The notes below the pieces were generated by a model. The model was not told where the DNA came from and searched no databases. It saw only the letters and a list, made by a program, of their open reading frames with translations. A program made the translations under genes and the position numbers. A stretch of DNA of 64,000 bases from an uncultured Candidatus Saccharibacteria bacterium (lineage in GTDB: Bacteria > Patescibacteriota > Saccharimonadia > CAILAD01 > JADZBC01), in contig CAZRJR010000001.1 in NCBI GenBank assembly GCA_964600985.1, forward strand, positions 147,270 through 211,269, written 5' to 3'. Numbering within the stretch: position 1 is the first letter of the stretch; the number at the start of each line of letters is the position of its first letter. This document shows, one piece after another, positions 25,093 to 63,163 of this stretch.

Positions 25093-25121
25093 TAAAAGCC
25101 CCTCATTGCGAGGGGCTTTTA
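25093..25121. terminator. Bidirectional rho-independent terminator after rplS.
   Basis: aaaagcccctc attgcg aggggctttt. Confidence 0.75.
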
Positions 25122-25144
25122 GATTGGAAAGTTTAATAACGGTA

Positions 25145-25708
25145 AAAGGTTCATTAAACGTAGAAGGGCCCTGGTCTTCTGACCAGGGCCAGCGCGATTG
25201 CGCTACCAGAGCCGGAATGCCACCGGTTGGCTTTTTATCCGATCATTGACCGGCATGGCCCAAAAGGGCGAGAAGGGGAGAAAAGAGCTGACTATTGGCT
25301 AGTCATTCTGAGTGCTCTCGCCGGGCAAGCCCACCTTGGTGGGGTCCTCCATACTGCCAAGCCTTTACCTTCGGTTTAAGCGCCGTGGTTCGCTTCACCA
25401 GTTAATTCTGGTCCAGGCCCTCTTTTCTCCGGAATGGGCACTATTCCGTGACTCTCCGCTTCCCCCACAGCGTAGGGGGTTAATCGGTCTGTCGGTACGT
25501 TTCGGGCGTCCATCTCCGATGCAAGAAAGTGAGCAGACGTATACTCACCCCCGGTATCCCTTGCCGGTGCACGTTCAGCTTCGCTGGGATTATGCGAGCC
25601 TAGTCTCTCCTCAGAGACGGTTCAGGTTTGGGTCCAGATCCCCATTCCCTAGCTAAGCAACGGTAGTATTGCTACGCTTAGCATGCAGGTTACCCGAAGG
25701 TAACCGAA
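25145..25708 (-). ncRNA. Candidate large structured ncRNA of about 560-580 nt, class unknown, in an ORF-free gap behind a consensus sigma70 promoter.
   Basis: On the minus strand, TTGACA (25739-25744), a 17-nt spacer and TACAAT (25716-25721). The region has many stable hairpins, for example ggttacc ttcg ggtaacc, gctaagc...gcttagc, cccac caag gtggg and gggccctggtc ttct gaccagggcc. No credible ORF is present: the 114-aa frame translates to Pro/Ser/Arg-rich nonsense. Confidence 0.4.
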
Positions 25709-25715
25709 CTTATGT

Positions 25716-25744
25716 ATTGTACTACACTATAGGCACAATGTCAA
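25716..25744 (-). promoter_or_regulatory. Near-consensus sigma70 promoter (TTGACA-N17-TACAAT) driving the candidate ncRNA on the minus strand.
   Basis: Plus-strand attgta at 25716-25721 and tgtcaa at 25739-25744, with 17-nt spacing. Confidence 0.6.
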
Positions 25745-25771
25745 TACTTTTTATATGCTATACTCATTCGT

Positions 25772-54868: not shown

Positions 54869-54881
54869 AGCTAGTCAGCAT

Positions 54882-54918
54882 AAACTAAAAACACCTCTCA
54901 TTTGGAGGTGTTTTTAGT
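54882..54918 (+). terminator. Rho-independent terminator after rpsG, separating it from fusA.
   Basis: aaaaacacctc tcattt ggaggtgttttt agtttt. Confidence 0.75.
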
Positions 54919-55053
54919 TTTGGTGTCACACCTGGCACTTGCGTAAGTGCCTGCTTTTCTCTATAATTACCAAGGAATAAAGCACGGAGCATTCTTCTGG
55001 TATCCTGGCTTTTTTGTTTACGTTAGACTAACTACAAGGAATTTATAACTCAC

Positions 55054-57162
55054 ATGGCTCGCGAATACTCACTCGAAAATACTCGTAACATTGGTACCAT
55101 TGCTCATATTGATGCTGGTAAAACTACCGTAACTGAAGCAATTTTGTACCGCACCGGACGCGTACACAAGATCGGTGAAGTTCACGAGGGTGCTGCAACC
55201 ATGGACTGGATGGAGCAAGAGCAAGAGCGCGGTATAACCATTACTTCCGCCGCTACTACGTGCTTCTGGAATGGGAACCGAATTAACATCATTGATACCC
55301 CAGGCCATATCGACTTTACGGTAGAGGTAGAGCGTAGTTTGCGTGTACTCGATGGTGCGGTAGTGCTTTTTGACGGCAAGATGGGCGTAGAACCACAAAG
55401 TGAAACGGTATGGCGCCAGGCCGACAAGTACGGCGTGCCACGTATTTGCTTCATTAATAAGATCAACCAGACTGGGGGGGACTTTTATAAATCACTCGAG
55501 TCGATTCACGCGCGATTAACGAAGCGGGCGTATGCTATCCACCTGCCAATCGGTTTCGAACAGAGCATTAATGGCTTGGTTGATTTAGTCGAAATGAAGG
55601 CGTACGAGTACAAGAACTACGCCGACAAAGAACTTAAAGAAATCCCAATCCCTGATGATATGACCGAGAAGGTCGCACACTACCGCCAGCACCTTATCGA
55701 GGCTGCCGTAGAGTCCGACGACGCAATTATGGAGAAGTACCTAGAAGGTAACGAGCTTACGGTAGAAGAGGTCAAGACAGTTGTTCGTAAATCAGTTCTA
55801 ACTGGCCAGTTTGTAGTTGTATCTGGTGGTGACGGCCGTGGTGTAATTGTAGAAAAGCTGCTTGATGCCATGATTGACTACCTGCCAAATCCACTAGACA
55901 TTACCGCGCCAATTGCTAAGGATGTGAAGACCGGCGAAGACAAGGTGATTGAAGTCTCCGACGACGCACCATTTGCTGGGCTAGCGTTCAAGATCGCCAC
56001 CGATCCATTTGTAGGTAAGCTGGCTTTCTTCCGGGTATACTCAGGTGTGCTTAAGAGCGGGAGCTATATTCTAAATGCTTCTACGGGGGAGAAAGAGCGG
56101 GTAGGTCGTATCGTGCGTATGCATGCTAACAACCGGGAAGAAGTTAGTGAGGTATACGCCGGCGATATTGCGGCCGCAGTCGGGCTCAAAAACACCATTA
56201 CCGGTAACACAATTTGTGATCCAGCTCACCCCGTTATGCTAGAGTCAATTACCTTTGCTGAGCCAGTTATCTCGATTGCAATCGAGCCTAAGACCAAGGC
56301 CGATCAAGAGAAGATGGGTATTGCCCTCTCGCGCTTAGCCGAAGAAGATCCAACCTTCCGTGTGCACACCGACGAAGACAGTGGCCAGACTATTATTGAT
56401 GGCATGGGTGAATTACACCTTGAAGTGTTGGTGGACCGTATGAAGCGGGAATTTAAGGTAGAGGCAAATGTTGGTCGCCCTCAGGTAGCATACCGTGAAA
56501 CCATTCGCAAGAGTACCCAGGTAGAAGGTAAGTTTGTACGTCAATCTGGTGGGCGTGGTCAGTATGGTCATGTATGGATCGAGTTGAGTCCGCTGGTGCA
56601 CGAGGAAGGCGCCGAAGAGCGCAAAACCTTTGAGTTCGAGAACGCGATTGTGGGCGGTGCAGTGCCTCGTGAGTACATTAAACCAGTCGAAGAAGGAATA
56701 CGTGAAGCTCTCGCTAACGGTGTAGTGGCGGGCTATCCGGTAGTAGATGTACACGCCAAGCTCTACGACGGCTCATACCACGACGTAGACTCCTCAGAAA
56801 TGGCCTTTAAAATCGCCGGATCTATGGCGCTCCAGGCGGGTGTACGTCAGGCCGATCCAGTTATTCTGGAGCCTATGATGAAGGTTGAGATTACTACCCC
56901 AGAGGAGTTTATGGGTGATGTGATCGGCGACGTTAATGCTAAACGTGGTCGGGTGGAGAAAATGGAAGACCGCATGGGGGCCAAGGTGATCAATGCTTAT
57001 ATACCGCTCTCGGGCATGTTTGGTTACGCTACAACTCTGCGCTCTATGACTCAGGGCCGCGCCAGCTCGGCGATGGAATTTGACCACTACGCTGAAGTAC
57101 CGCGCAATGTGGCCGAAGAGCTCATTGGCAAGCGCCAAGCGGCAGTCGAAGAGGGTCGTTAG
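55054..57162 (+). CDS. fusA: Elongation factor G.
   Basis: GTP-binding [21 protein letters not shown]. 702 aa. Confidence 0.95.
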
Positions 57163-57237
57163 TTTTCTATTTCTCAAGCCACATAGTTAATTAAAGCCCT
57201 GGCCTCGGAGCCTTTAATATTGACAGGTGGTCTTGTC

Positions 57238-57266
57238 AAAGGTATTATATACTTGATCGGTAACGG
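57238..57266 (+). promoter_or_regulatory. Near-consensus sigma70 promoter (TTGACA-N17-TATTAT) downstream of fusA.
   Basis: ttgaca at 57238-57243, 17-nt spacer, tattat at 57261-57266. Confidence 0.6.
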
Positions 57267-57269
57267 TCG

Positions 57270-57792
57270 TACCAGCGCACTATAGTAGGTCGAGGCGTCT
57301 AGGTGTCGGGTGAGGGCCCCGACACCATAGTACGAACTAGGTTAGAGACCTGGTCCTCTTCCGAAACCTCCTATTGCTCCTTGCTCCGGCTAGGGTGGCT
57401 TGATCTGCACCAGGTTGAGACAAGTAAGAGGGGAGAGTAGTGCGTGCGGTACAGCTACAAGCTCTGGAGTTGGGGCGAAAAGTTTCGTGCACAAACTTCG
57501 GAGACTCGACGGTACCGTCGAGAGTTCGAATTGCGGCCGAGAATTACTTAGGCCGGGGAAGAACTTTGTAGTGTAGGTAGCGTTCTCATGCCTACGCACC
57601 TCCGCCACTCCTCCTACGCCTCCGGGAGGACTACAAGGGTAGTGGCGACAAGGTGGCGGCCAGGGCATAGGCCTTGCCCAAATGGCCACTCGGCGAAATT
57701 TTGATTGCTCCTGCCTGGAGGAGATCCCGCTCTCAAAACTCGCCAACACGGGCCCGACCTCCCAGAGGTCGGGCCCGTTCTGCCTCTTTATG
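57270..57792 (+). ncRNA. Candidate large structured ncRNA of about 520 nt, class unknown. It lies between fusA and tuf and is bounded by its own promoter and a terminal hairpin. The tuf promoter follows immediately.
   Basis: ORF-free on the + strand. The antisense 119-aa ORF is Pro/Ser-rich nonsense. Dense hairpins include gtgtcgggtgagggccccgacacc, ccgccact...agtggcg and ggccgag...ctcggcc (approx.). It ends with cgggcccgacctc ccag aggtcgggcccg followed by tctgcctcttt. Confidence 0.4.
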
Positions 57793-57802
57793 GTTAAAAC
57801 CC

Positions 57803-57831
57803 TTTACAATCACGGCTTTTTTACCTATAAT
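57803..57831 (+). promoter_or_regulatory. Promoter for tuf (TTTACA-N17-TATAAT).
   Basis: tttaca at 57803-57808, 17-nt spacer atcacggcttttttacc, tataat at 57826-57831. Confidence 0.6.
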
Positions 57832-57915
57832 CGAAAAGTCTAAGGCCTAGACATATTTTTATGTATCTAGGGCCGAAAGCTGAATAATTAATAAATCATC
57901 CAACAAGGAGACCAC

Positions 57916-59103
57916 ATGGCAGCAGAATCATTTGACCGTAGTAAACCGCACGTAAACGTCGGTACAATGGGGCATGTAGACCACGGTAAAACTACTCTTA
58001 CCGCCGCTATTACCCACGTATTGTCTAAGAAACTTCCGAGCGCAGTTAATAAGGCTATTAACTACGACGAAATCGACAAAGCTCCGGAAGAGCGCGAACG
58101 TGGTATCACCATCGCTACTTCTCACCAGGAATACGAGAGCGAAAAGCGACACTATGCGCACGTAGATATGCCCGGTCACGCTGACTATGTAAAGAACATG
58201 ATTACCGGTGCAGCTCAGATTGACGGTGCCGTACTCGTAGTATCGGCTGCTGATGGTCCTATGCCGCAGACTCGTGAGCACGTATTGCTTGCTCGTCAGG
58301 TAGGCGTGCCGTACATTCTTGTATATATGAACAAGATGGACATGGCCGATCCAGAGCTAGCCGAACTTGTAGAACTGGAAATCCGCGAGCTTCTTGCCAA
58401 GAATGGCTACGACGAAAACGCCCCAGTGGTTAAGGGTTCTGCCCTTAAGGCTCTCGAGGGTGACGCTGCTGCCGAAGACTCAATCATGGAGCTTGTAAAG
58501 GCCATGGACGAAAGCATACCAGAGCCAAAGCGCGAAATCGACAAGCCATTCCTGATGCCAGTCGAAGACGTATTCTCGATCAAGGGTCGTGGTACGGTTG
58601 CAACTGGTCGAATCGAGCAGGGTATCATCAAGGTTGGTGAAGAAATCGAGATCATCGGTTTGCACGATAGCAAAAAGACTACGGTAACTGGTGTAGAAAT
58701 GTTCAAGAAATTGCTCGACGAAGGTCGCGCAGGTGACAACGTAGGTGTATTGCTGCGTGGTGTGGAGCGAACCGACATTGAGCGTGGTCAAGTGCTTGCT
58801 AAGCCAGGTTCAATTACCCCACACACCGAGTTTGAATCTGAAGTGTACGTACTTAAGAAGGAAGAGGGCGGTCGACACACTCCATTCTTCAAGGGCTACA
58901 AGCCGCAGTTCTACATCCGTACTACCGATGTAACAGGTGAAGTTACGCTTCCAGACGGCGTAGAAATGGTTATGCCAGGCGATAACATCAAGATGAAGGT
59001 TAAGCTGATTGCTCCTATCGCCATGGAAGAAGGCCTTCGCTTCGCTATTCGCGAGGGTGGCCGCACTGTAGGTGCCGGTGTTGTAACGAAAATCAACAAG
59101 TAA
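57916..59103 (+). CDS. tuf: Elongation factor Tu.
   Basis: [22 protein letters not shown]. 395 aa. RBS aaggag. Confidence 0.96.
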
Positions 59104-59131: not shown

Positions 59132-59452
59132 ATGCCAGAACAAGCTACAAAACAACGCATCCGCATTCGCCTCAAGGCCTACGACAGCAAGATCATTGAT
59201 CAGTCAGCTAAGCAGATCCTGGACACCGCTATTCGAACTGGTGCCCAGGTAGCAGGGCCGGTGCCTTTGCCTACCGACAAAAACAAGCTTACGGTGCTCT
59301 CTAGTCCGCACGTGTTCAAGGACGCACGCGAGCAGTTTGAGATGCGTACGCACAAGCGACTAATCGACATTACCGAACCAACTCCTAAGACGATTGACTC
59401 GCTGATGAATCTCAACCTGCCAGCGGGTGTAGACATCGAAATCAAAATGTAG
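59132..59452 (+). CDS. rpsJ: 30S ribosomal protein S10.
   Basis: [11 protein letters not shown]...GPVPLPT...106 aa. Confidence 0.93.
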
Positions 59453-59465
59453 CATTGCCAAGGCA

Positions 59466-59497
59466 TACTAAAAACCCCTCTAAGTGAGGGGTTTTTA
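59466..59497 (+). terminator. Rho-independent terminator directly after rpsJ, where rplC would normally follow.
   Basis: aaaaacccctc taagtg aggggttttt agtatt. Confidence 0.75.
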
Positions 59498-59588
59498 GTA
59501 TTGGAGGGATAGATAGTATATATTGAAAATAATCACGTAATATGATAAAGTAATAGTGTCATCCACGAAGACGATGGGAGCAAGCAGT

Positions 59589-59867
59589 ATGACTGTAGTA
59601 ACGGTTTACTCACCTCGTCTTAAGGACGATATTGAGCTCGTGCCGAGGTGTGTTCGAGATGTCCTCGGGCCAATGGGGTTAAAGGTAAATCGTGTCTTTG
59701 AGCGAATTGATTCCAATATCCCTCAGGGCAGTCATCGCATAGTCGTTGAGCTGTTGGCTGAAGTTGACTCGCGTGTTAGCCAAGACGCCATTGGGGAGGC
59801 GCTCAAGCGGCTGTTCAATCACGTGCCTCCACGCCGTGAGGTTACGGTTGAATTCAAAGCTGCGTAG
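59589..59867 (+). CDS. Hypothetical protein (island gene A).
   Basis: About 92 aa from ATG 59589, which has a ggag 9 nt upstream. GTG 59556 is an alternative start. No recognisable domain. Confidence 0.4.
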   Translation: MTVVTVYSPRLKDDIELVPRCVRDVLGPMGLKVNRVFERIDSNIPQGSHRIVVELLAEVDSRVSQDAIGEALKRLFNHVPPRREVTVEFKAA

Positions 59868-60024
59868 GTGAGCGACATACGACGACAAGACGTGGCAAGA
59901 GCCCGCCCGGGTTTAACCTGGGCGGGCATTATGCATTTGAATGAATGTATACGTAAAATAGTGTGGCAATACTCAGCTAATCCTGTTACTATAATGGTCC
60001 GTCAATCTTTCTAGAGGAGTGTTC

Positions 60025-60384
60025 ATGCGCGTAGAATTCAAGTGTTTTCGGCGTAATGCTGCTGCCTCTGCGGCTGTAATGCGGCTGAAGCAGTATGCCA
60101 ACACTGCGATCATCGAGGTCCTCGAACTGGATCCCAACGACCATCCGGTCAACAGCTTGCCCTGCTCGTTCCCACCCTCGAACGAGGCTGGCATCGAGCT
60201 CAACATCAGTGCGGAAGAGCATGACTACCCAGGCGACGGCAACCCTGCCGAGCAGATCTACGCCTGGGTCAAGCATCGTGGTGGCTTCGGGACCGCGGGG
60301 GCAACTGTTACCATCCGTTGTCGCAAAAACGGACAGGTGAAGAAGTTCACGGCTGGTTCGACTAGGGTCCTCCAGTCGGTCTGA
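60025..60384 (+). CDS. Hypothetical protein (island gene B), visibly G+C-richer than the surrounding DNA.
   Basis: RBS gaggag lies 6 nt upstream of ATG 60025. 119 aa with no recognisable domain. Followed by two stem-loops (cccgcctgagtcac ttcg gtgactcaggcggg, and aaagcaccac ttaaa ctggtgcttt). Confidence 0.45.
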   Translation: MRVEFKCFRRNAAASAAVMRLKQYANTAIIEVLELDPNDHPVNSLPCSFPPSNEAGIELNISAEEHDYPGDGNPAEQIYAWVKHRGGFGTAGATVTIRCRKNGQVKKFTAGSTRVLQSV

Positions 60385-60585
60385 TCGGTTGACGGCACCC
60401 GCCTGAGTCACTTCGGTGACTCAGGCGGGAATTCCGAATTTATACACTTTAACTAAGCTAAAAGCACCACTTAAACTGGTGCTTTTAGCTTAGACAGAAC
60501 AAAAGTATTAAGTAGTTAATAGCTTGGTTCCGCCCACCTGGCCCCGTTGAAGGGGCCAGGTGGTACGTTATTGACTCGTGACGAA

Positions 60586-60906
60586 TCAGGCAGAAAGGGC
60601 AGCAACGGCCGTGTGGCCGCTCGGAGGTTCCCAGGGAATCAGCGCAGGGTAGATCTCCAGAGCCGGGATGAGTAGGTAGCGCTCCACGGTATCAGCAATA
60701 ACTGCTGCCTCTGTAGGGCTGATTGCTGGGGTCCCTCGACGCGGCCTGATCCGGATGACCTTTCGGTCGGGGAAGCCGTGTGCTTCAACTTTGTAGCGAT
60801 CACCTAGTCTCCGGGAGAGATCTGCGATCGTGGCATCACACGGAGCCGTACCCCGCAGGAGGGCACGCTTCCCACTCCACACCAGTCGGATGGCGCTTGC
60901 TTGCAT
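60586..60906 (-). CDS. Hypothetical protein (island gene C), G+C-rich.
   Basis: 106 aa. A hairpin (cacctggcccc gttgaa ggggccaggtg) lies just downstream of its stop. No recognisable domain. Confidence 0.4.
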   Translation of the reverse strand: MQASAIRLVWSGKRALLRGTAPCDATIADLSRRLGDRYKVEAHGFPDRKVIRIRPRRGTPAISPTEAAVIADTVERYLLIPALEIYPALIPWEPPSGHTAVAALSA

Positions 60907-61757
60907 GGCTTTCTCCTTTCGGGGTTGCTTGGGCCAGGCACACTACTCACAGTAAGTGTGGGCAGCGTGCCGCGTCCAAGACAATCCAGTCTCTGCCTGA
61001 TTTGTAAAAGAAACTAGAGCATCATGCGTGCCCTAATGAGTACAGATAATACTCTAAATATGTGGATAAGTCAATCTAATTCCTTACTAAACTATAGACA
61101 AGTAGTATGTAGTATGATACTATAGGTGTCTAAGTTTGGCGTTCACGCCAAATTGCACCTTATACACCTCGGACTTCGGTCCGTAGAATCAGCTCTCGAC
61201 GCGACCAGTGATGTTGTCAAGGCTTGATTCTACGGACTGATCCACGAACCCGGTTAGGGTACGCGGTAAGTCCAGCTCCGGGTCGATAGGAGGTGTAGTG
61301 GTGGGCCACTGAATGCCAGTGTAGCTTTCTCGCTCAGGCGACGATTGCTCCTCGCATGTCTAAAGCCATACCGCTCTACTTCCAAAAGATCCGGGCAAAT
61401 TCTCCCGCCATGCCACAAGCATGGTGGGCCTGGAGGGGTGGATTCCGCCCCCCTCCAAGGCTTGGCGCACTAAACTCGCGCGATTTAGGTCGCTGCAGTT
61501 GGTGTGTCGCCCGAGATGGCCATCCCGCCGGCCATCTCGTGGTTCGCGTCGTGCATTATATATTCACGGCCACAGTCGGAGACACGCCCGCGTCTCCGCC
61601 CCCGCAGCACGCGATCATCGCCCGCTTGCTGCCTCCGAGGGTGGGGCCGACCTTCACGGTTGGCCCCACCCTCCGCCCCTCTATATGAGGGGCTTTTGAT
61701 TTTGGTATTATTCCGACAGCTTAGACAGTCCAAAGCTTTTGTGCTTAAATAGAAGCT

Positions 61758-62021
61758 ATGAAGTCCAGCGCGAAAACAAAACGCTACTATGAGTCTGACT
61801 TTGCATTCTTGGTTAAGGCGGCGCTCTACCTTATACTTGGTCTCACCTGGTTATCTATTAGCTCACATCGCATAATTCCAATCGGCGTTATGCTTGGTTT
61901 TGCTTTTTCAAAGGTCGATGCCCTGCGGATTGATCGCAAAATAGAATATGCTCTCCTGGTGGTAGGTGCCCTGCTTGGGCTGGTATTTACTGGCATTGGC
62001 TTAACTTTAGCAATTGGTTAG
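61758..62021 (+). CDS. Hypothetical small membrane protein (two TM segments).
   Basis: 87 aa with two hydrophobic segments. Confidence 0.45.
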   Translation: MKSSAKTKRYYESDFAFLVKAALYLILGLTWLSISSHRIIPIGVMLGFAFSKVDALRIDRKIEYALLVVGALLGLVFTGIGLTLAIG

Positions 62022-62030
62022 GGCACTCGC

Positions 62031-62405
62031 GTGGTGAACATGGGGGGCCTAAACCCTACGCCGGCCTTTATAGTTAGCTTGCTGCCGATTCCATTCCTGC
62101 TCTACTATAATGTGATTGTAATGCGCTTGGTTTGGCAGGTGCGCATGCACGCGCGTAGCAAACATTTGCGTTACCCAGCGATTTATCAGCAGGGGAGGGC
62201 GCTTGGCTTGCTGTCGGCTTGTTTTGCGCTGGTGCCCGCAGTGGCTGAGTGGCGTGTATTTGTGCTTAACCCATACTGGGCGGTTTCGTACATAATTGGT
62301 GGAATTTTGGGTGTGTGGGCGCTTATTATGGTTCGCAAAGGTCTCGAGCAGGAGCTACGGCGCATTCCAGCAGCACGCTCAACTGGCTCTAAGCACAAAA
62401 AGTAG
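62031..62405 (+). CDS. Hypothetical membrane protein (three to four TM segments).
   Basis: 124 aa. Hydrophobic segments are separated by basic loops. Directly follows the preceding small membrane gene. Confidence 0.45.
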   Translation: MVNMGGLNPTPAFIVSLLPIPFLLYYNVIVMRLVWQVRMHARSKHLRYPAIYQQGRALGLLSACFALVPAVAEWRVFVLNPYWAVSYIIGGILGVWALIMVRKGLEQELRRIPAARSTGSKHKK

Positions 62406-62560
62406 TTGACACTCCTGTTATTTATCTGTTACACTAGCCACTGGTCAAAACAATTCCAAAGGCTTTACAGCTGGGAAGTGATTAGGTCCGGACTCCAACC
62501 TGGAAACCCATCTACTTGCCAGGATTTGTTTTTAGAACTAACAAATAATCAAGGATAACC

Positions 62561-63163
62561 GTGAAAGCTTTGCTCGCAAAAAAAATCGGCATGACCCAGA
62601 TCTTCGATGAATCGGGTGTTATGACTCCAGTCACCGTGCTGGAGGCTGGCCCATGCGTGATTACTCAGCTTAAATCAGTAGACCGCGATGGCTACAGTGG
62701 TGTGCAAATTGGTTTTGGTCAGGCTAAGCACCAGCCAAAGCCCCAGGCTGGCCACCTGGCTGCCGCCAAGGCTAATAGCCGGCACTTAGCCGAGGTGCGC
62801 ACTGATGAACCTGCCGATATGTCGGTTGGCGATGAAGTAAAAGCAGATGTTTTTGCCGTCGGTGATAGCGTGCAAGTAAGTGCTATTTCCAAGGGCAAAG
62901 GCTTTGCCGGCACCATTAAGCGTCATAACTTCAAGCGTGGACCAAAGACCCACGGTAGCCACAATTATCGCGCTCCGGGATCGATTGGTGCGGGCTACCC
63001 ACAGCACGTGTTTAAGGGCCAGAAAATGGCCGGTCAAATGGGCAACAAGCAGGTTACTGTAAAGAACCTTAAGATCATGGAAGTTGACGTTGCCAATAAC
63101 GTGCTCGTAGTGCGTGGCGCAGTGCCTGGCCCTAAGAAAAGTTTAGTAATGGTGAAGGGCTAG
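62561..63163 (+). CDS. rplC: 50S ribosomal protein L3.
   Basis: GTG start. ALLAKKIGMTQIFDE..., FKGQKMAGQMG. 200 aa. RBS aagga. Confidence 0.93.
   Translation: MKALLAKKIGMTQIFDESGVMTPVTVLEAGPCVITQLKSVDRDGYSGVQIGFGQAKHQPKPQAGHLAAAKANSRHLAEVRTDEPADMSVGDEVKADVFAVGDSVQVSAISKGKGFAGTIKRHNFKRGPKTHGSHNYRAPGSIGAGYPQHVFKGQKMAGQMGNKQVTVKNLKIMEVDVANNVLVVRGAVPGPKKSLVMVKG

Follow-up and report, generated by a model that had tools for sequence, protein, structure and literature searches.

Spacer between fusA and tuf

The window analysed here is a 64-kb stretch of DNA from a Candidatus Saccharibacteria contig, in which the translation-factor genes fusA (55054-57162) and tuf (57916-59103) are separated by a spacer of 753 base pairs (bp), matching the split of about 750 bp described in a first-pass annotation of the sequence. 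Such a separation is unusual, because the fusA-tuf gap is 0-402 nucleotides (nt), mostly below 220 nt, among the listed non-Patescibacteria loci fetched via EF-G; across Patescibacteria, the junction measures 124-2963 bp. The interior of the spacer has a G+C content of 0.53-0.605, compared with 0.40-0.53 in its flanks, an enrichment that had also been pointed out. On the plus strand, 57250-57790 contains no open reading frame (ORF) of at least 60 amino acids (aa) and several of 30-58 aa, and the description of some 520 nt devoid of plus-strand ORFs holds at this cut-off for about 525 nt. We propose that the spacer probably holds the gene for a lineage-specific, free-standing structured non-coding RNA (ncRNA) of about 525 nt that would be independently transcribed.

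The EF-G sequence assigns the window to Saccharibacteria (Patescibacteria): EF-G homologues at 77-84% identity are labelled ‘Candidatus Saccharibacteria’, and a tight protein group lies at 91-93% identity, whereas exact searches for the window's own EF-G and EF-Tu matched no record. With the DNA around the proteins of the tight group, we compared six distinct lineages, some sampled several times: the window itself and the relatives designated L081, L083, L085, L174 and L177. All six share the order fusA, an ORF-free gap of 693-753 bp (693-722 bp in the five relatives) and tuf-rpsJ. Their fusA genes are 78-82% identical at the DNA level and only 44-50% identical at third codon positions, from which it follows that neutral sites are saturated. 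After MAFFT alignment, identity between the spacers is 44-62%, and blastn between them aligns only the final 60-180 nt, which correspond to the tuf promoter and leader.

Both edges of the proposed RNA gene are marked by recognizable signals (Table 1). The promoter reported to follow fusA does exist, with 11 of 12 consensus matches, but the positions given for its hexamers (57238 and 57261) lay about 18 nt too far to the right. Its pattern, TTGAC[AC], 16/17 nt and TAT(T/G/A)(A/G)T, is kept in six of six lineages. This near-consensus, sigma-70-type promoter would start the transcript at about 57255, directly at a 5′ hairpin, as is typical for stable RNAs. The -35 hexamer lies inside the fusA terminator hairpin in L083 (5630-5665) and L081 (5630-5670); the overlap in L083 reads AAAAAACAACCCC-ATTGACA-GGGGTTGTTTTTT, a compact arrangement.

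At the other edge, the 3′ end would lie at a GC-rich terminal hairpin, where the transcript would stop or be trimmed. A hairpin occupies this site in every lineage, with differing sequences. In the window it was passed over by the terminator scan for want of a U-run after it, and the U-run is missing in the other lineages too; the terminal hairpin of the first-pass annotation is thus present at 57748-57778, but not as a called terminator. The separate TTTACA-17-TATAAT promoter described before tuf was located as well, and CTTTACA-17-TATAAT is kept on the 3′ side in all six lineages. As tuf has its own conserved promoter directly after the RNA, we do not regard the RNA as a tuf leader. The tuf promoter and the first ~30 nt of the leader (CCTATAATCGAAAAGTCTAAGGCCTAG, followed by the hairpin at 57844-57874) are nearly invariant across the six lineages, in which synonymous sites are saturated, and this near-invariance of 57800-57874 implies that a DNA or RNA signal there is strongly constrained. 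A scan of the metagenome collection found no match to the tuf leader's conserved 20-mer.

A conserved fold beneath diverged sequence

The plus strand of 57250-57790 folds with a minimum free energy (MFE) of -241 kcal/mol (z = -5.1), which none of 100 dinucleotide shuffles equalled; the minus strand of the same stretch gives z = -4.2. The six lineage RNAs have z-scores of -5.1 (window), -3.35, -4.9, -5.6, -4.7 and -4.5, compared with -1.1 and +0.2 for two coding control windows of equal length. Independent MFE folds of the lineages share one plan, running from the 5′ hairpin to the terminal hairpin. The 5′ hairpin is predicted in four of the six (the window, L085 with a UUCG loop, L081 and L177), and each of the six, despite differing sequences, independently yields a predicted P1-type helix with 10-15 bp and a span of 167-202 nt. 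The loop of hairpin III has 8-9 nt in the shared plan. Domain IV and hairpin V vary in size by lineage, with counterparts in L081, L177 and L085 and reduced forms in L083.

MAFFT failed to align the spacer or its modules in a structurally correct way, and alignments to covariance models, built from single sequences and then iterated, were used in its place. Model R1, made from the four-way junction and hairpin III of L081 alone, matches the syntenic sites of L177 (E 1.9e-12), L085 (3.4e-8) and L083 (3.2e-7) and, with filters off, the window at 57493-57599 (E 3e-4). Model R2 combines L081, L177, L085 and L083; run with filters off over the whole 64-kb window on both strands, it returned 57453-57603 as its sole significant match (E 2.5e-4), the next best having an E value of 1.6. 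The 3′ part is covered by model R3, built from domain VI and the terminal hairpin of L081, which matches the syntenic sites of L083 (E 1e-4), L177 (3e-4), the window (57686-57780, 0.049) and L085 (0.24).

In the five-sequence alignment of the central domain (junction plus hairpin III), 95.0% of cells are paired and 30 of 42 pairs change on both sides; the four-sequence alignment has 93.8% of cells paired, with 25 of 43 pairs changing on both sides. None of 500 column shuffles of the central domain reaches any of five measures, and sliding the 3′ partners by 1-3 columns lowers the paired fraction to 29-41%. G-U or U-G cells make up ~22 of 202 (~11%) in the central domain. On the opposite strand these would be C-A mismatches, and this, together with the promoter, fixes the plus strand as the one that folds. 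The fold is kept by compensatory changes while the sequence drifts at about the rate of saturated synonymous sites, and selection maintains both the multi-domain plus-strand fold and the promoter before it.

Loop-loop contacts and overall architecture

The central domain would be further tied together by a loop-loop contact, KL1. The apical loop of hairpin C holds a conserved UWCUYR motif, and the six nucleotides immediately 5′ of this motif are complementary to positions 3-8 of the hairpin III loop. The partners are GAGAAU and GUUCUC in the window, GGGGGU and ACCCUC in L085, GGAAUC and GAUUUC in L081, GAGAUC and GAUCUC in L177, and AUGAUC and GAUCAC in L083, where five of the six positions pair. 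In a gap-free alignment of the extracted segments from these five lineages, 29 of 30 cells are paired and five of the six pairs change on both sides; none of 500 shuffles reaches the paired fraction or the covariation score, and slid versions are 43-57% paired. The segments were picked by structural landmarks, which makes KL1 good evidence, not a blind test. For a second candidate contact, KL2, the domain VI loop UGCCUGRR could pair with a YCAGGN hairpin loop of domain I (CCAGGU in the window). Here 40 of 45 cells pair, the core is invariant and just one pair covaries, and we treat KL2 as a lead, not a finding.

Together, these elements suggest an RNA that would fold compactly. Its 5′ hairpin would be followed by domain I with its long-range closing helix, and then by the four-way junction and hairpin III, locked by the 6-bp contact between hairpins C and III. 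Two variable modules would come next, then a long hairpin whose UGCCUGRR loop may pair with the CAGG loop of domain I, and finally the terminal hairpin. Such an RNA would presumably act in trans as a stable folded molecule, serving as a scaffold, a protein partner or a self-associating RNA. Our confidence is strong for the structure, moderate for the transcript and weak for the mechanism.

Table 1 Positions of the proposed RNA gene, its predicted structural elements and the flanking signals in the window
Feature	Positions	Strand	Basis or remark
RNA promoter	57220-57248	+	TTGACA 57220-57225, 17 nt, TATTAT 57243-57248; 11/12 consensus matches
Proposed RNA gene, ~525 nt	57255-57780	+	Ends deduced from promoter and terminal hairpin
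5′-terminal hairpin, GAUCG-GUAA-CGGUC	57255-57268	+	MFE folds; from ~+1
Domain I	57269-57452	+	MFE folds; closed by helix P1 (57269-57283 with 57437-57452)
Domain I hairpin loop carrying CCAGGU	57410-57415	+	Domain folds
Domain II, four-way junction	57454-57572	+	Closing stem 57454-57460/57566-57572; R2 match, pair counts
Hairpin A, GAAAA loop (GAAA-type in shared plan)	57462-57503	+	Part of domain II
Hairpin B	57505-57522	+	Part of domain II
Hairpin C, the longer one	57523-57565	+	Part of domain II
KL1 5′ partner, apical loop of hairpin C	57539-57544	+	Pairs with 57582-57587
Hairpin III, 7-bp stem, 9-nt loop GCGUUCUCA	57573-57595	+	8/9 helix-6 pairs change both sides
KL1 3′ partner, loop of hairpin III	57582-57587	+	Pairs with 57539-57544
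Domain IV	57597-57655	+	MFE folds
Hairpin V	57658-57687	+	MFE folds
Domain VI, long irregular hairpin	57692-57744	+	R3, folds; 4-bp apical stem 57708-57711/57720-57723
Domain VI conserved 8-nt loop UGCCUGGA	57712-57719	+	UGCCUGRR in 5/6 lineages
GC-rich terminal hairpin, 14 bp, loop CCA, then UCUGCCUCUUUAUGG	57748-57778	+	Sequence reading, fold
tuf promoter	57803-57831	+	TTTACA 57803-57808, 17 nt, TATAAT 57826-57831; 11/12 matches
tuf promoter and leader start, including hairpin 57844-57874	57803-57874	+	Bounds the RNA, not part of it

Distribution within Saccharibacteria

The family is narrow and confined to one genus-level Saccharibacteria clade. R2 found no homologue in ~95 other loci from Patescibacteria and other groups and, with filters off, no match in the sister loci nor in L174; R3 found no homologue in sister lineages or other loci, only weak spurious matches to unrelated GC-rich hairpin pairs. 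Searching the spacer by blastn and nhmmer against 80 EF-G loci of species-representative genomes gave no match, and among the loci listed there was no close relative. The metagenome scan with a variable EF-G segment yielded, among the matches listed, only distant relatives at no more than 63% identity, and these loci served solely as negative controls. Phage and plasmid collections showed no meaningful similarity to the spacer RNA, and blastn and nhmmer found no further copies within the 64-kb window.

Sister lineages whose EF-G is 81-84% identical lack the RNA and have fusA-tuf gaps of 1072 bp (L087), 1248 bp (L180) and 1753 bp (L090). Their gaps carry small ORFs (L087 5694-6765, L180 5110-6357, L090 5628-7380) that have no Pfam match and are unrelated to each other and to the RNA by tblastx and tblastn; in L093, tuf does not adjoin fusA. 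The fusA-tuf junction is an insertion hotspot, occupied by the RNA gene in this clade, and for this reason having fusA and tuf as neighbours says little in favour of a role in translation. Both ORFs in the L087 gap resemble membrane proteins.

Between L081 and L178, fusA is 96% identical (third positions 89%), but the spacer has no aligned difference and tuf is 100% identical. The RNA-tuf segment may thus have recently been recombined or transferred, unless one assembly is chimeric.

Weighing the alternatives

Several points weigh against a free-standing RNA gene. The start, end and stability of the RNA are all deduced from sequence elements. Since no U-run follows the terminal hairpin, termination may be incomplete and transcription may run on into tuf, and the RNA could come from the processing of a longer tuf transcript. 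There are just six distinct sequences, all from one clade, and the core of L174 has diverged to the point that the models fail to recognize it. The alignments were fitted to the structure by the covariance models, and the pair counts are inflated; an alignment artefact is nevertheless disfavoured, because the slid controls score low and each sequence alone predicts the same helices. Unpaired nucleotides are hardly conserved, which is unusual for ribozymes and for RNAs that bind a precise ligand. Finally, the sister lineages are without the RNA, so the element is young or dispensable.

In the main alternative, a distal promoter acts in tandem with the proximal one and produces a long tuf transcript whose upstream part is the block; the block would then be either a structured 5′ leader tuning tuf or a stable RNA processed out of the transcript. 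It would account for the terminal hairpin that lacks a U-run in all lineages and is passed over by the terminator scan, for the end of that hairpin lying ~25 nt before the tuf -35 element, and for the position beside tuf in six of six lineages. There is also an established precedent in Escherichia coli, where four tRNAs upstream of tufB are co-transcribed with it in the thrU-tyrU-glyT-thrT-tufB operon. The two arrangements are alike in placing a structured stable-RNA gene with a strong promoter directly upstream of an EF-Tu gene; they differ in that the fusA-tuf RNA is not a tRNA and that tuf here has its own conserved promoter after the RNA. This near-consensus, almost invariant promoter between block and tuf makes tuf independent of the distal promoter, and the sister lineages L087 and L180 keep the same tuf promoter without the RNA. 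Moreover, a block of ~525 nt that contains both a four-way junction and contacts between loops goes far beyond known leaders, and the fold does not overlap the tuf ribosome-binding site, which lies ~130 nt downstream. We therefore consider a co-transcript or leader rather unlikely. Among the candidates tried individually, a cis-regulatory leader or riboswitch of tuf is disfavoured, as the conserved promoter with 11 of 12 matches lies in between and the fold ends well before the ribosome-binding site.

Very unlikely, in our view, is a block with no function of its own, be it a decaying inserted gene or mobile element at a recombination hotspot, or a set of GC-rich hairpins whose sole effect is to insulate fusA from tuf. 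The junction is indeed variable across Saccharibacteria, with unrelated small ORFs in the sister lineages, and the RNA family is barely conserved in primary sequence and confined to one clade. However, neutral decay would not keep the promoter, the length, the multi-helix junction with its 30 of 42 covarying pairs and KL1 while synonymous sites saturate, and covariation has already largely refuted this explanation. Nor is there a coding remnant, another copy in the window, or a similarity to phages or plasmids: the first-pass annotation had listed a remnant among its options, and tblastx and tblastn found nothing coding outside the conserved tuf promoter DNA. That DNA is the sole tblastx signal between spacers and appears in all frames, which therefore marks nucleotide and not coding conservation. 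Across the six lineages, the ORF list, tblastx, tblastn and Pfam reveal no conserved reading frame in the spacer.

A highly divergent member of a known family (RNase P RNA, tmRNA, a group I or II intron or a large ornate RNA) that escapes the standard models is highly improbable. Size and complexity would suit an RNA of the ribozyme class, and Patescibacteria are noted for unusual RNAs and introns (PMC13011429). Yet Rfam returned only noise at E ≤ 10 and, tRNAs apart, nothing at the gathering score in the window and eight further loci; ARAGORN called no tmRNA, the presumed T-loop turned out to be one strand of a helix, and a tag ORF and a 3′ CCA context are missing; and the element has its own promoter and no flanking exons. 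The details of these searches are given below.

The chance that the antisense ORF, which the first-pass annotation had correctly described as a 119-aa, low-complexity frame (57390-57749, minus strand), is a real protein gene is practically negligible: although no other ORF in the spacer is longer, it starts with GTG, is low in complexity and rich in Pro/Ser, matches nothing in Pfam and, by tblastn and tblastx, has a counterpart in none of the orthologous spacers, the conserved promoter points along the plus strand in the opposite direction, and gene callers are silent in the spacers except for a 68-aa call in L082 that is missing from the 99.7%-identical spacer of L081.

Comparison with known RNA families

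Rfam 15 at the gathering score found nine tRNAs and nothing else in the 64-kb window. When 4227 Rfam families were run over 57100-57950 (851 bp) with permissive filters and E ≤ 10, only noise resulted; the highest-scoring match, an Acinetobacter sRNA model on the terminal hairpin, reached 20 bits where the cut-off is 47. No Rfam match appeared in any of eight loci, orthologous or sister. Of the identities offered by the first-pass annotation, an unknown large ncRNA is the one favoured, by the promoter, the length, the covarying multi-domain fold in six lineages and the lack of an Rfam match. With its conserved fold and no Rfam match, the RNA would form a new clade-specific class, and we found no description in the literature of such an RNA in Saccharibacteria or Patescibacteria.

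The other identities offered did not stand. For an atypical or permuted tmRNA, ARAGORN found nine tRNAs and no tmRNA in the window, and Rfam had no match even at E ≤ 10. The candidate was rejected, as there is no tRNA-like domain with a T-loop and no tag ORF, the ends of the RNA are separate hairpins, and there is no 3′ CCA context. The motif GAGTTCGAATTG (57521-57532), read at first as T-loop-like, is a helix strand whose partner covaries: GAGUUCGAAUUG takes in the last part of hairpin B together with the 5′ strand of helix C, and in the AGUUC/GAACU pairing of helix C four of five pairs change on both sides. RNase P RNA was likewise without an Rfam match at E ≤ 10 on 57100-57950; types A and B were rejected because the RNaseP_bact_a and RNaseP_bact_b models are unmatched in the window and the orthologous loci. 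By eye, no P4 strands (GGAAAGUCC-like, ACAGAA...GGCUUA-like) or close variants occur at 57250-57790. The fusA-tuf RNA does share with RNase P RNA and tmRNA a length of several hundred nucleotides, multiple helices and long-range pairings; it differs from them in having no Rfam match, ARAGORN call, P4 strings, tRNA-like domain or tag ORF.

Further candidates were tried and set aside. The Rfam covariance models of OLE, ROOL, GOLLD, HEARO and raiA are unmatched in the window and the orthologous loci. Group I and II introns have no Rfam match, and the element sits between two complete genes with its own promoter and without flanking exons. For sarcin-ricin-loop mimicry, AGUACGA (57338-57344) is confined to the window sequence; for an anti-Shine-Dalgarno decoy, CCUCC/GGAGG strings are not conserved outside helix strands; and for a GNRA tetraloop with an 11-nt receptor, there is no consistent receptor.

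Cryo-EM has shown that OLE, ROOL and GOLLD form RNA-only homo-oligomers, with contacts that include kissing loops (PMC12286853). The fusA-tuf RNA resembles them in its comparable size (roughly 500-800 nt), its ornate multi-domain fold and its loop-loop complementarity, which could act within or between molecules; in L083, the KL1 partners form the palindrome UGAUCA. In contrast to these families, which are widespread and have many conserved nucleotides, the fusA-tuf RNA is confined to a clade and keeps mainly its structure. It also leaves their Rfam models unmatched and has no prophage or tRNA-gene context, and oligomers are only conjectured here.

Another point of comparison is the smtA motif (‘Soda Lake RNA’), an RNA of more than 350 nt found only in Thioalkalivibrio (PMC11109978). 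Both are large and ORF-free, with multiple stems supported by covariation, are restricted to one genus-level group and are too long for a cis-regulator. They share no sequence or model similarity, however, and the fusA-tuf RNA lies in the str region of one Patescibacteria lineage, has a recognizable promoter of its own and shows little sequence conservation.

Possible significance

Structured bacterial ncRNAs of more than 400 nt are rare, and those that are understood are ribozymes, ribonucleoprotein (RNP) cores or, as recently recognized, self-assembling RNA cages. Saccharibacteria are epibionts whose genomes are typically small and in which non-coding DNA is scarce. If half a kilobase is kept there as folded RNA, it must bring a real advantage under selection. 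The family is a natural experiment as well, in which sequence is nearly free while the architecture and one tertiary contact are fixed; this is of use to structure prediction and to the question of what RNAs of this kind require to function. By analogy with the large RNAs above, the fusA-tuf RNA might be the founding member of a new ornate class from the candidate phyla radiation, with loop-loop contacts driving a compact fold or an RNA-only or RNP assembly, and with an activity tied to the translation-factor locus, be it that of a scaffold, a ribozyme or a ribosomal-site mimic, although we hold this wider proposal to be distinctly unlikely. Should it be true, then, together with an unrelated unit elsewhere in the window (25100-25760, described below), it would mean that a lineage with a reduced genome invests in several large ncRNAs. 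The narrow distribution limits the general importance of the RNA, and the claim stands as a prediction from sequence.

Other features of the window

The block at 25100-25760, proposed for comparison in the first-pass annotation, is also ORF-free and structured (z = -4.0 on the plus strand and -3.3 on the minus strand) and matches no RNA family in Rfam, including at E ≤ 10. Kinship with the fusA-tuf RNA found no support: there is no sequence similarity and no R2 match, and R3 gives weak matches to its GC-rich terminal hairpin only (E 0.35-0.91). The block reads best as a minus-strand unit, with TTGACA (complement 25739-25744), a 17-nt spacing and TACAAT (complement 25716-25721), a 5′ UUCG hairpin (complement 25688-25705) and a GC-rich terminal hairpin at ~25166-25190, followed by UUCUACGUUUAAU. 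This ending resembles in style the end of the fusA-tuf RNA.

The str region is repeatedly rearranged inside this clade. Between rpsG and fusA, several close relatives carry a thymidine kinase gene and a small ORF on the opposite strand (L081 2421-3262, L083 2461-3260, L178 1422-2263), where the window has merely a 185-bp spacer (54869-55053). Downstream, rpsJ and rplC are 3.1 kb apart in the window (59452-62561), and the intervening ORFs have no significant Pfam match. Only the first of them, at 59556-59867, was matched in a relative, the fetched loci reaching just 0.25-1.6 kb past rpsJ into this stretch. Within it, G+C content reaches ~0.6 at 60100-61000, and a GC-rich hairpin pair lies at 61636-61697.

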